Shown: piece by piece, positions 5,420 to 59,018 of the stretch
How the letters are laid out: every line of letters begins with the position of its first letter
Position numbering within the stretch: the first letter of the stretch is position 1
The notes under the pieces: model-generated
What the model was told of the DNA's origin: nothing
Seen by the model: the letters and a program-made list of their open reading frames with translations, nothing else
The model's database searches: none
Translations under genes and position numbers: made by a program
Assembly: GCA_951406725.2 (NCBI GenBank)
Contig: OX597826.1
Location: 52,452,001 to 52,516,000, forward strand
Source: Octopus vulgaris
Lineage: Eukaryota
DNA: 64,000 nt
Direction of reading: 5' to 3'

Positions 5420-6768
5420 TAGTCCGAATTTATAGAAAGACAGACAAAAACAGGTATAGGAGTAATAAACAAATGTATTAGTTTGTTGATCGGGAAAATG
5501 GAAAAGTCTTGTACGTTTCGATCCTACGCTCTTCGGCAGAAAGGAATAAGAAGAAATAAATAGAGAAAAAGAATGAAAAAGACGTCTTCATTTCAGTGAT
5601 CCAATATATCGGTGATTGGAAAAAATGCTTTATCATGTGGTGTGTGCACAAGTGTATATATATGTGTGTGCGTGTGTCACCGTGACCAAATAGTATGCAT
5701 GTGTATAGCGTGTATGTATGGGCGAAAGTTATATTTGTCAATGGTTGTTGCGTGTGTTTATGCGTTTTGGGTATGTGTGTGTGTGTGTGTATGTGTGTGT
5801 GTATATATATCGTCTGTGCTCAGGTATTATGTGCCTATGTGGGTGTGATAGTGTGCATGACGGTGTGTGGTCTTTGTACTGAGTTAAAGAGCGTGTGTGA
5901 CTGCTCATATAATGGTATGGGTGGTGAGGCTACACTGTTCGACTCATCACTCACTTCACACACAATTAGATACACACTCCACAACACCTTCACGCTCCAC
6001 ACACACTTCTTGCGCTCACACCTCACACCGTCATTCACACACACACACACAATCTTCAATAGCGTCAACACACATTCCACTATATGAGAAGCCAGACACA
6101 CTGCTTAACTCAATACACACACCAAACACTATCATGCACACTCCCACACCCACACAAACACATAATACCTGAGCACAGACAATATATACACATACACATA
6201 TGCACACACGCAGCATGCATAAGGACACGCAACACACATAAACAAATATAACTTTCGCCCATATATATACACTATACACATGCTCACTATTTCGTCACAG
6301 TAACACACACATACACGGGCACACACCACGTGAAAAAAGCTCACATCAGCTGTTACACCCAACACACACAGACACGCATATTATACACGCACACATGTCA
6401 AATTCACTCGACCCATTCACGCAAACACACACACACACACCATTCTCACCTACACATTTACGTTTCCGCACCTCCTCCTGTTCGGATTAATATGAATTAT
6501 CTCCACTTGATTCAACCCCTCTTTACTATTATCTACCTTTCATTCAATCTCTTTTTTCCCCAATCATTCGTCATGCTGTGCCGCTGAACTCAACACATTT
6601 TTTTTCATTCTGTCTCTCTGCTTATTTTCTTTTGTTCCTTTCTGTTGAAGTGCATAGGCTCGAAACGTAAAAGACACGTTCATATTTCCCAGCGTCAAAC
6701 TAATACATTTGCTTGTTGTTCCTACTCCTGTCTTCGTCTTAGTTTTTCTATGAATTTGAACTATATAT
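5420..6768. mobile_element. Non-coding inverted (fold-back) PLE-type element with outward-facing hammerhead-like motifs
   Basis: 5627-5925 is an inverted homolog of 6065-6340, and 5420-5600 of 6580-6768. Motifs at 5506-5544 (-) and 6637-6675 (+). Confidence 0.7.
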
Positions 6769-7489
6769 CATACGCTCATGTGGTAACCAGTTTCATCTTG
6801 ACTGAACGTCTCACTCTTTGGACTTGCATATCTTTACCACTTTCAGACCTTTCAGGACCTTTCCTCATCCACATACCACCACACGCTCACACCCGGTTAC
6901 CACTAGATCTTTGTAGTCTTTTGGTATCTATCTTCACGGATCTCACTGGTTATTTTTGTTGATACACACACACACACACAAACAAACACATATATATAGA
7001 GAGATAAATACAGATACATTTGTATGTATGTATGTATGTATGTATGTATGTATGTATGTATATGTGTGTGTGTTCGCATGTCTATCTCTCTGAAATCGGA
7101 GCAATGTGGAAAGGCAGCAAACTTCTTACCGGAAAGAGAGAGAGAGAGTAAGAGAGAAAGGGGGAGAGAGAGAAAAGTTTTGCAGTTATTAGACGTGTTA
7201 TATATTGAATGAGGTTTAAGGTGATGATTATCATAATTATTATTTATTTTGTTTATGAGTGGAATCTACAGTGTGGTGCAGATAGTGTACTTAACTATGA
7301 CGATAATTTGTCCAATATTTATGAATCTGAATGCTAATACCACCTGAGGATAATGTCACTAAATAGCATAAGTCATTGAAGTAATAGTAGAGTAGTTGTA
7401 GTAGTAGTATTAGTAGTAGTAGTAGTAGGTTTCATGTCACTGTTTTTTTTTTTTTGAGGTAGCAATGATAACGGGGATAATGGCGTATC

Positions 7490-7662
7490 AAAAATAGTTT
7501 CTTCCATCTTTACGTTCTGACTTCAAATTCCGCCGAAATCGGCTTCACCTTTCCCCCTTTCGTGGTCTATAAAGTAACTACCCAGCTGAGCACTGGGGGC
7601 AATGTAATTGACTTAGTCCCTTCCCCGAGATTTCTGGCCTTGTGCCAAAATTTGAAACCAAT
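7490..7662 (+). mobile_element. SINE family D
   Basis: TTACGTTCTGACTTCAAATTCCGCCG...GGCCTTGTGCCAAAATTTGAAACCA. Homologous to 14365-14580 and 29668-29880. Confidence 0.7.
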
Positions 7663-7691
7663 ATAAAAAAATAGTTGTTATGTTAAAAATA

Positions 7692-7818
7692 CTGCTGCTG
7701 CTGCTGCTACTACTACTACTACTACTACTACTACTACTACTACTACTACTACTACTACTACTACTAATAATAATAATAATAATAATAATAATAATAATAA
7801 TGATAATAATAATAATAA
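7692..7818. repeat. Compound triplet microsatellite (CTG)n(CTA)n(TAA)n
   Basis: Directly visible. Confidence 0.95.
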
Positions 7819-55335: not shown

Positions 55336-57599
55336 CTCTCTCTCTCTCTCTCTCTATATATATATATATATATATATATATATATACAGAGAGAGAGAGA
55401 GAGAGAGAGAGGTAGAAGAAAGTGAGGAAATGAAGGAATTATTTAATTCTAAACTAACTACGGGGAAATAAACATATGAAATCGAAACAGAAATTGAAAG
55501 AAAGTTTTTCTCAGAATGTAAACAAAGATGGCGTCGTAAATCGTAACTGAGATGTTAGCTTACATTAAAGGAAAATAAAAAATAATAAACAAAAATATGA
55601 AAACAATACTTATCATAAAAGGTACAGTCCAAACCCTCGTGCTTGTACGAAGAAGTTTTGTTTCACAACAGAAAAGAAAACAATTCTTTTTCCTTCTTAA
55701 TTTTGGCTGGAGATAAATTAACGACTTGCCACCACGTGCTTTTTCGGTGAAGATTCTATCATGCGTAACTAACTTTACTGTATTATATTTGGCTTCAAGC
55801 AAAATATATTACGTTTTTAATTAATATATTTTTAATTAATGTATTTTAGTAGACTTTATGAGTTAACAAGTTCTACGTTTTGTTACATTTAGTAGATTAA
55901 TTCGTCGATTTATGAAAACCTTTTTGTTTTTTCACAGAACAAAAGCAAACACGTCTTTCCTCTACGAAAACCGGAATAAATAAATTGAAAATTACAATGA
56001 ATTACGTAGAATGCCTTCATGCATAGCTGAGATGTAGGGAATATATATATATATATATATATATAAAGGCAGCTAAACCGGAACAAATTTAAATGGGGCA
56101 TATCTGAAAATATAATCAGAGGTAATGATAATTTATTTGTGCGTTTAAGCAGTGAATCAGGATTCAGCTCAATATGTTATTAACTTGGCATATTTTAGTA
56201 CTCAGCTCAATAATGTTATTAACTTTATATTTTAGTACTAAATAATAAGACTAATGGAGAAATAACCCTAATTATATATCGAAAATAAAATACGCCATTC
56301 TGATATATATATATATATATATATATATATATATATATATATATATATATATATATATATATATATATATATACATACATATATAAGTAACATCGAGTCA
56401 TATAATACCTGTATTAAACAGTTAAGAGGAGGTAATATGATATTTAACAAAAGCTCTTAATTTTCATAAATAATTGTAATATATATCACATAACATGCAT
56501 TTAATTTGGTTGATCAGCTTACATGCAAAATCTAATTTGATACAAAGATTATGATGTCTTAAAGAGTAAGTTAAGTAAATTACATCAAATAAACTAGTTA
56601 GAGTACATTATGAGACATAACATGCTTTCAGTTATGTAGAACAACTTACATGCAAAATGTATAGTTTTGTAGCCGTTATCTCAACATATATTTCTAATCG
56701 GTATATTTTTACTACTTCTGAAGAGATTCATCTTATAATGACATTGATTTTATAAATTAATTATCCAAAGATTTATGAATCAAAACACCTGTCAGAGATA
56801 TTGTCATACTTTATAATTAATAAATAATTTTATTAATTACCTCTCCATTTTCTCCTTATTCTTTAAATATATAAATATATGAACCACAGTTTATATGGTT
56901 ACCTTATAGTTGAATTCTCTATAAATTGGTAACTAACAAGTATTTTCATTGGATTTATGATCCCTTAATGAGGTTTATTACCTTTACTTGATTATATATA
57001 TATATATATATATATATATATACATACATACATACATACATACATATATATATATATATATGAATACGAAATACGAAAGCAACATGAAATACGAAGACAA
57101 ACTTGGGTATGCGAACAACGAGAGAACCAAATGAAAAACAAGACATGTAATATAAAGAACGACCCTTCATCAGTTGTCGGCTGTCCATCTGCTTCTTGTT
57201 TCGAGCAATGATCGACAATATGAGGCTTCGAAAGCCAGTTGCTCTCGCGAACCAACATAAAACGTGGAGTTTGCGGAGGGTCAAAGTTGGTGATAAAAAC
57301 AGGACAGTGGAGACATACAACAAATCAAAGAAGACAAACATGAAGGGCCGTTAGGCCAGACAAGGTAAAGTAGCGAACGCTGGAGGAATATTGTCCTTGA
57401 TTTCGTGTTGTTTTCGTATTTCATGGTGTTTACGTTTTGTGACGTCTTGTATTCATGTATGCATATATATATCTATATATATATAGGTATGTATGCATAT
57501 ACATATATATGTATGTATATATATATATATATATATATATATATATATATATATATATATATATATATATATGTGTGTGTGTGTGTGTGTGTGTGTGAG

Positions 57600-57860
57600 C
57601 GTGACCGACCAGGCTATCAGATGTTGTTACACATCACTGGTGACAATGTGCTTCGCATTGTTTTAGCCTCCAAATGACGCCACCTCGCTGGTTAAGCGAG
57701 CAGGCCGACAGAAGAAAGAGTGAGAGAAAGTTGTGGCGAAAGAGTACAGCAGGGATCGCCACCATCACCCTACCGGAGCCTCGTGAAGCTTTAGGTGTTT
57801 TCGCTCAATAAACACACACAACGAGTCCGCTGCCCTAACCACTGTGCCATTGCGCCTCCA
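57600..57860 (-). mobile_element. SINE family C, internally deleted
   Basis: Reverse complement of 61845-62145. Confidence 0.8.
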
Positions 57861-57979
57861 TATATATGTATATATATATATATATATATATATATATATA
57901 TATATATATATATATATATATATATATATATATATATATATATATATATATATGTATGTATGTATATGTATATATATAT

Positions 57980-59018
57980 ACATTATATAAAAGGGCTTAG
58001 TAAAATAAATTACTTTGCCGCATACTGAACTCATTAGAAATAGCAGCTAAAAAACTTTTTAAAACTATTTCTAATACTTAAAAAACCTCTCTCATATAGT
58101 GTTTGCTCAACTCAACTCACGAAAGTTTGGGGGTAAAGACATCAAAAAATCAAATGCAAAGGTTATTTGAGAACGTACGTTTCAAGATTAGTCAACACGA
58201 CACTTCTATCATCAGCTCAGAAACTCCTTGGTTTGGATTTGAAAACACTGAAAGTGAGAGCATACTCTTTCGGCATCTCATCGCTTTCGAAGATCTGCTC
58301 GTAACTAACAGTGCCAACAAACTCAAATATGCAAGCGAAGAATTTCTGTTCTCCCTTTCCACCAGCGTGGGTTAAAATCAGCAAACACTATGCTTATTTC
58401 GGTAAAATCCGAAGCATTAATTAGAGGGAGATTAATTATAATTTCAACAATTGAGGGTAAAATTAATTAATTATTAATCAATTTCACCAAGTGTTCAGTA
58501 TGCAAAGGGACCATTTAAGGCGAATTCAAATTATTACATTATATAAAGGGCTTAGTAAAATAAATTATTTGCCGCATATGAACTCATTAGAAATATATAC
58601 TTTTTAAAACTATTTCTAATACTTAAAAAAACCTCTCTCTATAGTGTTTGCTCAACTCAACTCACGAAAGTTTGGGGTAAAGACATCAAAAAATCAAATG
58701 CAAGGTTATTTGAGAACGTACGTTTCAAGATTAGTCAACACGACACTTCTATCATCAGCTCAAATAACCTTTGCATTTGATTTTTTGATGACTTACCAAA
58801 CTTCGTGAGTTGGAAACACTTATGAGAGAGGTTTTCTTTAAGTATTAGAAATAGTTTTAAAAGTTTTTAGCTGCTATTCTTGAGTTCAGTATGAAAGTAA
58901 TTTATTTTACTAACCCTTTATATAATGTAATAATTTGAATTCGCTTAATGGTCCCTTTGCATACTGAACACTTGGTGAAATTGATTAATTTAATTAATTT
59001 TACCCTCAATTGTTGAAA
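57980..59018. mobile_element. Partially tandem plus inverted PLE-type repeat array with two hammerheads (58168-58219 and 58711-58762, minus strand)
   Basis: 57980-58219 is repeated at 58537-58762. 58759-59018 is an inverted copy of ~58441-58714. rc motif TGAG-CTGATGA...GAAACGTACGTT|CTCA. Confidence 0.8.

Follow-up and report, generated by a model that had tools for sequence, protein, structure and literature searches.

Outward-facing hammerhead palindromes in an Octopus vulgaris locus as probable insertion footprints of Penelope-like elements

Penelope-like elements (PLEs) of the endonuclease-positive (EN+) kind are the closest described counterparts of seven fold-back structures with outward-facing hammerhead ribozyme motifs, which we analysed in a stretch of 64,000 nucleotides of the Octopus vulgaris genome (assembly GCA_951406725.2, contig OX597826.1, positions 52,452,001 to 52,516,000; the whole stretch is referred to as the window). 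PLE insertions are described as having an inverted 5'-truncated copy, a one-sided tail of 30-40 bp, and a bias toward (TA)n and other microsatellites (PMC8557442); pseudo-long terminal repeats (pLTRs) may stand head-to-head with palindromes at the junction, for which self-priming was proposed (PMC3846280). For the anole PLE protein, nicking and extension were found on both strands of the target, with two internal start sites that define the tail; hammerhead cleavage was unnecessary in vitro, and no reads ended at the cut (PMC11167929). In Schistosoma mansoni, pairs of minimal hammerheads lying on opposite strands at distances of 100-700 bp were noted in 2014 and ascribed to truncated PLEs (PMC4209133), hence this layout is already known; the U3-A8 variant is reported in the same paper. 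Retrozymes (reviewed, e.g., in PMC6765202) have no open reading frame (ORF), carry a type I hammerhead, are linked to PLE pLTRs, and are defined as tandem repeats making circular RNA (PMC7229834; bioRxiv 10.64898/2026.07.22.740005). The O. vulgaris repeat annotation lists Penelope-like families and 893 recently active unclassified families of short interspersed elements (SINEs), hammerheads being unmentioned there (PMC13282606). Our literature search, with subscription papers, supplements, Repbase, and Dfam outside its scope, found no paper on the families described below or on a palindromic non-autonomous PLE class; the families are probably uncatalogued, and may already stand in Repbase, Dfam, or paper supplements.

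The structures are labelled A (5421-6762), B (16137-16795), C (23350-26308), D (30452-30795), E (41199-41557), F (48100-48272), and G (57980-59021). They are very probably insertion footprints of several EN+ PLE families, each consisting of a 5'-truncated hammerhead end and an inverted truncated copy, joined head-to-head and probably remade at each insertion. The link to PLEs, suggested by an earlier note made from the letters of this DNA, is direct for C, which has the ORF, and is drawn from architecture for the other elements. Three of the features by which EN+ PLEs are recognized were found: an ORF with reverse transcriptase (RT) and GIY-YIG (C only), a terminal minimal hammerhead near the 3' end, and an inverted 5'-truncated copy of variable length. 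Head-to-head arms, one-sided extension, and microsatellite flanks agree with EN+ Neptune-type PLE units (PMC8557442; PMC3846280), as do the C-terminal GIY-YIG and the CxxxxCxxC linker in C and the inverted + direct + direct layout of G, whereas most copies in the window lack an ORF, the extensions are of 57-100 nt and not 30-40, and the clade is judged by motif. The hammerheads share with the metazoan PLE minimal type I ribozymes (PMC4209133) the short stem I, the extra base at 9/10.1, the palindromic stem III, the U3-A8 variant, and the opposite-strand pairs; they differ in the G3-C8 core and UUU triplet of family D and in C or U at position 6 of family A. Animal non-LTR (long terminal repeat) retrozymes are similar in the absence of an ORF, the type I hammerhead, the PLE pLTR link, and, for G, two tandem hammerheads 543 nt apart; in contrast, D and the solo copies of family A are dispersed monomers in microsatellites.

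Inverted repeats and hammerhead cores

Inverted repeats were identified by self-BLAST followed by arm-to-arm alignments (the counts are aligned columns and include some flank). All six inverted repeats of the earlier note are present, and a seventh, G (58437-59021), lies inside its range but was absent from its list. The arms are 67-95% identical, with indels (identical columns: A 440/565, B 281/321, D 164/178, E 133/168, F 91/136, G 281/317; C, 95% over 724 nt), and therefore represent aged genomic structures.

Hammerhead cores were defined by a 3-8 pair, U4, G5, A6, and A9, GAAA, and a palindromic stem III, with at least 3 bp in stem I and at least 2 bp in stem II. The first scan, which demanded flush closure of stem II and C3/G8, yielded no intact cores and one chance-level match. 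The second scan, which accepted any Watson–Crick 3-8 pair and a stem II that could be long and have an unpaired base at its ends, was loosened after the first one and after the sequences had been read, and is thus partly post hoc. It shows six intact minimal type I cores in the window (both arms of D, the left arm of B, two in G, and a solo end at 50473), compared with a mean of 0.3 and a maximum of 1 in 10 shuffles; with one mismatch, the counts are 9 vs. 2.1, or 12 vs. 5.1. The motifs point away from the centre, as had been claimed. Paired hammerheads in each element had been claimed as well; the cores indeed exceed chance, but two fully intact ones are seen in D only. In E the boxes are intact and the stems weak; the right motif of B has U3.G8; F is degenerate; A6 is replaced by C or U in A; and A13 is changed in C.

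Of the 18 tabulated motifs, 13 have a perfectly palindromic stem III, which varies from family to family. As the 3-8 pair, C-G is found in A, B-left, E, and G, G-C in D, and U-A in C; the variation of this pair across unrelated families, along with the extra base at 9/10.1 and the palindromic stem III, is a trait of PLE minimal hammerheads. U occupies the cleavage position 17 in four unrelated families (B, D, G, and the family-A solos). NUU triplets are poor hammerhead substrates, so that ribozyme activity may be low or the register of the motif may differ.

The outer ends were placed by arm homology before the distance to microsatellites was counted. Eight of the 14 lie at most 10 nt from a dinucleotide run of at least 4 units (background 4%); A-right, C-right, and E-right have short TA stubs only, and E-left, F-left, and G-right have none. 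The solo arms mentioned in the earlier note are seen by self-BLAST and the hammerhead scan (family-A solos, 50371-50490). Overall, the observation of the earlier note is confirmed in part, the inverted repeats and the motifs being real.

Element C and the family-D population

The elements had been described as non-coding, which does not apply to C: the 3' half of an RT/GIY-YIG ORF of Penelope-like type makes up the loop of this element.

24238..25379, minus strand: C ORF, 5'-truncated and broken, with the RT C-terminal part, the CxxxxCxxC linker, and GIY-YIG
23350..24237, minus strand: C 3' untranslated region (UTR)/pLTR with its terminus at (TA)n; motif 23452->23423, U3-A8, A13 changed
25378..26308, plus strand: C inverted copy of the 3' end, joined at the ORF truncation; motif 26199-26228

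The C loop has a Pfam match to the GIY-YIG domain, and the ORF is homologous to 83 longer proteins, most of them with RT and PLE-type domains (best 60%). The protein P0001 is matched over residues 375-752, residue 375 falling at 25379 and the C-terminus at 24241; the ORF is cut off at 25379, and the inverted arm begins at 25378. C is an ordinary PLE copy: the inverted 3' end comes first, followed by the 5'-truncated ORF, the 3' UTR carrying the hammerhead-like motif, and (TA)n. The linker cysteines before GIY-YIG are present in C and invariant in alignment A1; judged by this linker motif the C protein appears Neptune-like, and Nematis has the same linker. The 102 nt at 26080-26181 are unique to the inverted arm, the copy in the other arm having been lost between short direct repeats; therefore, even arms with 95% identity changed after insertion.

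A distant relative (L003, 30% identity) contains a full ORF between two identical minimal hammerheads in direct orientation, the 3' one being 31 nt before (TA)21. L002-L004 have no terminal DNA in common with the window, and L002 and L004 are uninformative on termini. These are animal-type PLE sequences within bacterial records of metagenome-assembled genomes, likely host contamination; further intact or near-intact minimal hammerheads are found on the minus strand at L003:5601-5632 and L004:891-918. The 73 viral candidate stretches contained no PLE relatives, and a pattern scan of metagenomes produced a single match (L001, 56% GC, 23 nt matched), judged to be due to chance.

Element D allowed us to check, as the earlier note had proposed, whether palindrome centres are fixed or variable.

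30452..30659, minus strand: D long arm, a near-complete family unit with a ~57-nt tail; hammerhead 30634->30599
30660..30795, plus strand: D short arm, inverted, 5'-truncated, and tail-less, with its terminus at (TA)n; hammerhead 30669-30704

The long-arm hammerhead has the G3-C8 core, a 7-bp stem I, a 5-bp stem II, and U17, the triplet at the cut being UUU. Contigs from 4 of the 24 listed sequencing runs were mapped to the D long arm plus loop (11388, 13681, 7788, and 1180 contigs per run); run X7, with 1180 contigs, is only guessed to be RNA and is of no use as expression evidence. The summed depth on D is in the millions, with ~35-200 for single joints, which suggests tens of thousands of copies, although depth is not copy number.

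Most family-D copies in these public contigs consist of one arm, with a length of ~210-230 nt. The depth at the D junction of the window (30660-30665) is 0.25%, 0.42%, 0.20%, and 0.10% of that at the adjacent positions 30652-30659, while the edge bin opposite the junction keeps high depth. Beyond the loose ends at 30659 there is a 21-nt leader and then TA, and beyond those at 30657 the flanks are AT-rich and unrelated to each other; the D loop belongs to the family as its own 5' leader, and the D tail is also part of the family. Strand switches account for 7 of the 15 listed joints (27 joints in all) and are present in three DNA-type runs. One side of each lies at 30650-30658, and the other at 30514, 30542, 30571, 30583, 30596, 30612, or 30614; a second whole hammerhead is retained in none of the seven. 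Hence the centres are variable in family D, with no shared centre, and the single-arm majority together with the variable joints indicates that each insertion probably forms its palindrome afresh.

At 30513, near the stop of the D short arm, loose ends whose flanks are unrelated (run X10, 13 contigs) point to a second 3' end of family D that has no tail. The D arms share alleles at 30560, 30566, and 30586 (3 of 4 family-polymorphic sites) and in loop II, and at 30534 the short arm has a third letter. Conservation of the hammerhead within D was considered as evidence and set aside as uninformative, the family being young and one common stem change keeping a G-U pair.

The earlier note had predicted that a transcript from either strand would contain one sense ribozyme and a long double-stranded RNA (dsRNA). 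Folding weakens the idea of a working ribozyme in such a transcript: the D palindrome folds at -211 kcal/mol, vs. -146 with the hammerhead stems forced (a cost of ~65 kcal/mol), so that its sense hammerhead is predicted to be buried in the hairpin. For single-arm RNA the hammerhead fold comes close to the lowest energy (-46.0 vs. -44.7), with stem pair probabilities of 0.65-0.99. The sense ribozyme always lies in the 3' arm of read-through RNA, so that its complement is made first, and thus palindromic copies are predicted to be ribozyme-dead.

Origin of the inverted arm

The junction of G is placed at a predicted ribozyme cut.

57980..58762, minus strand: G direct part with a (TA)n terminus and two identical tandem hammerheads, 58758->58715 and 58215->58172
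58759..59021, plus strand: G inverted arm without a hammerhead, starting at the base after the predicted cut

The two hammerheads of G are direct and in tandem, one of them being in the loop, with no ORF seen between them; G is a 1.5-mer tandem, and tandem monomers are not seen for D or the family-A solos. The inverted arm overlaps the 4-nt stem I strand. The junction fits a cDNA ending on cleaved RNA and, equally, a fold-back on stem I without cleavage. As proof of cleavage it was rejected: stem I microhomology by itself predicts the G junction; one of the seven D joints (30596-30598, near the predicted cut) falls within 2 nt, for which we estimate a chance of ~1 in 4; and two further D rows at 30597 carry no orientation.

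For the ORF-less families we infer a PLE origin and the following course of insertion. An RT/GIY-YIG protein, Neptune-like by its linker, would nick (TA)n-rich DNA, and the cDNA would start at either of two sites that lie 50-250 nt downstream of the hammerhead, making the tail optional. Most likely, both target ends would prime, and the cDNA 3' ends would join via 1-4 nt of microhomology, yielding two outward 3' termini, a tail on one of them, and a head-to-head join; alternatively, the second arm might form by cDNA fold-back. A pair of outward-facing hammerheads would require that both arms happen to extend beyond the ribozyme. The palindrome would be a dead end sequestering the ribozyme, while the spreading unit would be the single arm or the tandem. 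One-sided extensions are observed in B (76 nt), D (57 nt), and G (~100 nt).

Fold-back, in which one cDNA (or an antisense template) primes itself as a hairpin, is a variant of the PLE reading and not its competitor, so that our confidence in the two overlaps; we consider it a serious possibility, albeit below even chances. It was proposed for PLEs in PMC3846280, the arms share alleles, and the G junction is exactly the stem I complement on which a stopped cDNA could fold; yet the pairing at the D junction is only 1-2 nt, and the D short arm stops near an apparent alternative 3' end, which a fold-back copy would have no reason to respect. Two-ended priming is slightly ahead, as it fits the stop of the D short arm near the loose-end cluster at 30513. 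A distinct non-autonomous class of palindromic retroelements, spreading as the whole two-hammerhead hairpin, is improbable. It could account for seven palindromes of unrelated sequence in 64 kb, for junctions at most ~25 nt (D, E, F) or ~40 nt (B) upstream of the core, and for the lack of solo copies of B, E, and F in the window by self-BLAST. However, the D centre seen in the window has at most 0.4% of the adjacent depth and the seven other joints all differ; family A has solos in the window; the short junction–core distance is explained by the natural 5' end of D at ~30657-30659; and hammerheads on opposite strands cannot dimerise in one transcript, the sense one being predicted to be sequestered. 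Between the two options of the earlier note, routine making at insertion is thus preferred over the new element class, which does not hold up in family D, the one family that was testable; B, E, F, and G were outside this test.

It is very unlikely that the elements are DNA-transposon miniature inverted-repeat transposable elements (MITEs) inserted at TA with hammerhead-like words arising by chance, despite the inverted arms in TA-rich targets and the lack of an Rfam hammerhead match. The intact cores (6 vs. 0.3 in shuffles), the one-sided tails, the PLE ORF in C, and the mostly single-arm state of D argue against MITEs, and no common terminal motif, target-site duplication (TSD), or symmetric arrangement of terminal inverted repeats and TSDs was found; the ORF match and the family-D population test by themselves largely refute this explanation. 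Chimeras of assembly or amplification have equally little to recommend them: a separate 9.7-kb inverted repeat (core 2496/2525 identical) does surround D, but the arms of the small palindromes differ by 5-30% with indels, requiring time after formation, and the family-D strand-switch joints recur in three DNA-type runs.

Several observations weigh against PLE footprints. Some motifs carry U17 or altered core bases; Rfam hammerhead models have no match in two regions with intact cores, and no hammerhead is among the Rfam rows listed for the window (150 of 354), the top sub-threshold matches on B being microRNA (miRNA) models. A long microsatellite is missing at 6 of the 14 outer ends. Among eight end pairs, the search for TSDs revealed none except a TA-rich 8-mer in F, although a TA TSD would be unreadable inside (TA)n. 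The extensions (57, 76, and ~100 nt) exceed the published tail of 30-40 bp; no compensatory stem change was seen within family D; and variable centres come from D only, from 15 of 27 joints listed, with 633 loose ends outside the list. A tblastn search of the window with the 83 proteins gave no match beyond C, leaving A, B, and D-G without an ORF match.

More tentatively, family D and the family-A solos may represent a SINE-like, ORF-less mini-PLE of ~210-230 nt that has defined 5' ends a short way upstream of its natural G3-C8 hammerhead and that has reached tens of thousands of copies in (TA)n through amplification in trans; head-to-head copies would then record two-ended priming, one arm extending to the 5' end of the RNA and the other in some cases ending at the cut (G and one D joint). 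If so, PLE integration and in vivo hammerhead cleavage could both be read from the junction spectrum in the genome. The remaining interest lies in an ORF-less mini-element, present in very many copies, whose hammerhead has a natural G3-C8 core, and in junctions favouring two-ended priming. Such copies form a large natural data set on two open points, the making of inverted PLE ends and the role of the hammerhead (PMC8557442, PMC11167929). In annotation, such structures might be mistaken for MITEs, SINEs, or miRNA hairpins; if transcribed, the hairpins could be sources of dsRNA, as could any inverted repeat.

Remaining elements and neighbouring sequences

The other elements and the solo ends are as follows (a dot marks features given without a strand).

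5421..6762, strand (.): A, two family-A ends in an old inverted arrangement, the inner arms being AC-rich (self-BLAST, arm alignment)
5539->5512 (minus) and 6642-6669 (plus): hammerhead-like motifs of A, with A6 replaced by C/U
5047..5222, minus strand: solo family-A unit with microsatellites at both ends (alignment)
15776..15970, plus strand: solo family-A unit with (TA)n at both ends, starting ~70 nt upstream of the core
3480..3725, plus strand: distant family-A-like solo end, core at 3595, terminus at (TACA)n
16137..16795, strand (.): B, palindrome 16213-16795 plus a 76-nt extension on the left side only
16466->16382 (minus, intact core) and 16549-16632 (plus, U3.G8): hammerheads of B
41199..41557, strand (.): E palindrome, cores 41328 (minus) and 41342 (plus), junction at most ~10 nt from both
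48100..48272, strand (.): F, an old palindrome with degenerate motifs 48183 (minus) and 48193 (plus)
50371..50490, minus strand: solo end with an intact minimal hammerhead (50473->50434, GUA triplet), ~60 nt from a microsatellite

The family-A solos at 5047..5222 and 15776..15970 are identical at 196/222 positions (flanks included), with nearly equal 5' starts. The left arm of E lacks 90 nt. A leader resembling the 3' end of E was dismissed, the likeness extending over 8 nt only and being matched by 86/2000 shuffles. A degenerate hammerhead-like motif with A3-U8 and a GUC triplet lies at 47960-47984 (plus strand), 115 nt left of F.

The window has a GC content of 36%, is rich in microsatellites, and is full of decayed repeats. 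The 9.7-kb inverted repeat around D (26339-36061) contains a mariner-type transposase remnant in each arm (28545-29285, plus; 32664-33404, minus) and a 1086-nt spacer, the left edge of which is the (TA)n beside D; it is a recent inverted duplication or an assembly artefact, its arms being closer to each other than those of D. A decayed RT and GIY-YIG-like remnant follows (TA)n at 17201-18550 (plus strand), probably from a PLE of another clade, which we take to be Nematis-like by its motifs; it has a weak likeness to P0001 (E 0.033) and no Pfam match. A short LTR-retrotransposon-like remnant at 13498-13800 has weak, sub-cut-off Pfam matches to RT RNase H-like, and two old RT remnants of long interspersed elements (50693-53707 and 59292-61343), in opposite orientation, are ~68% alike.

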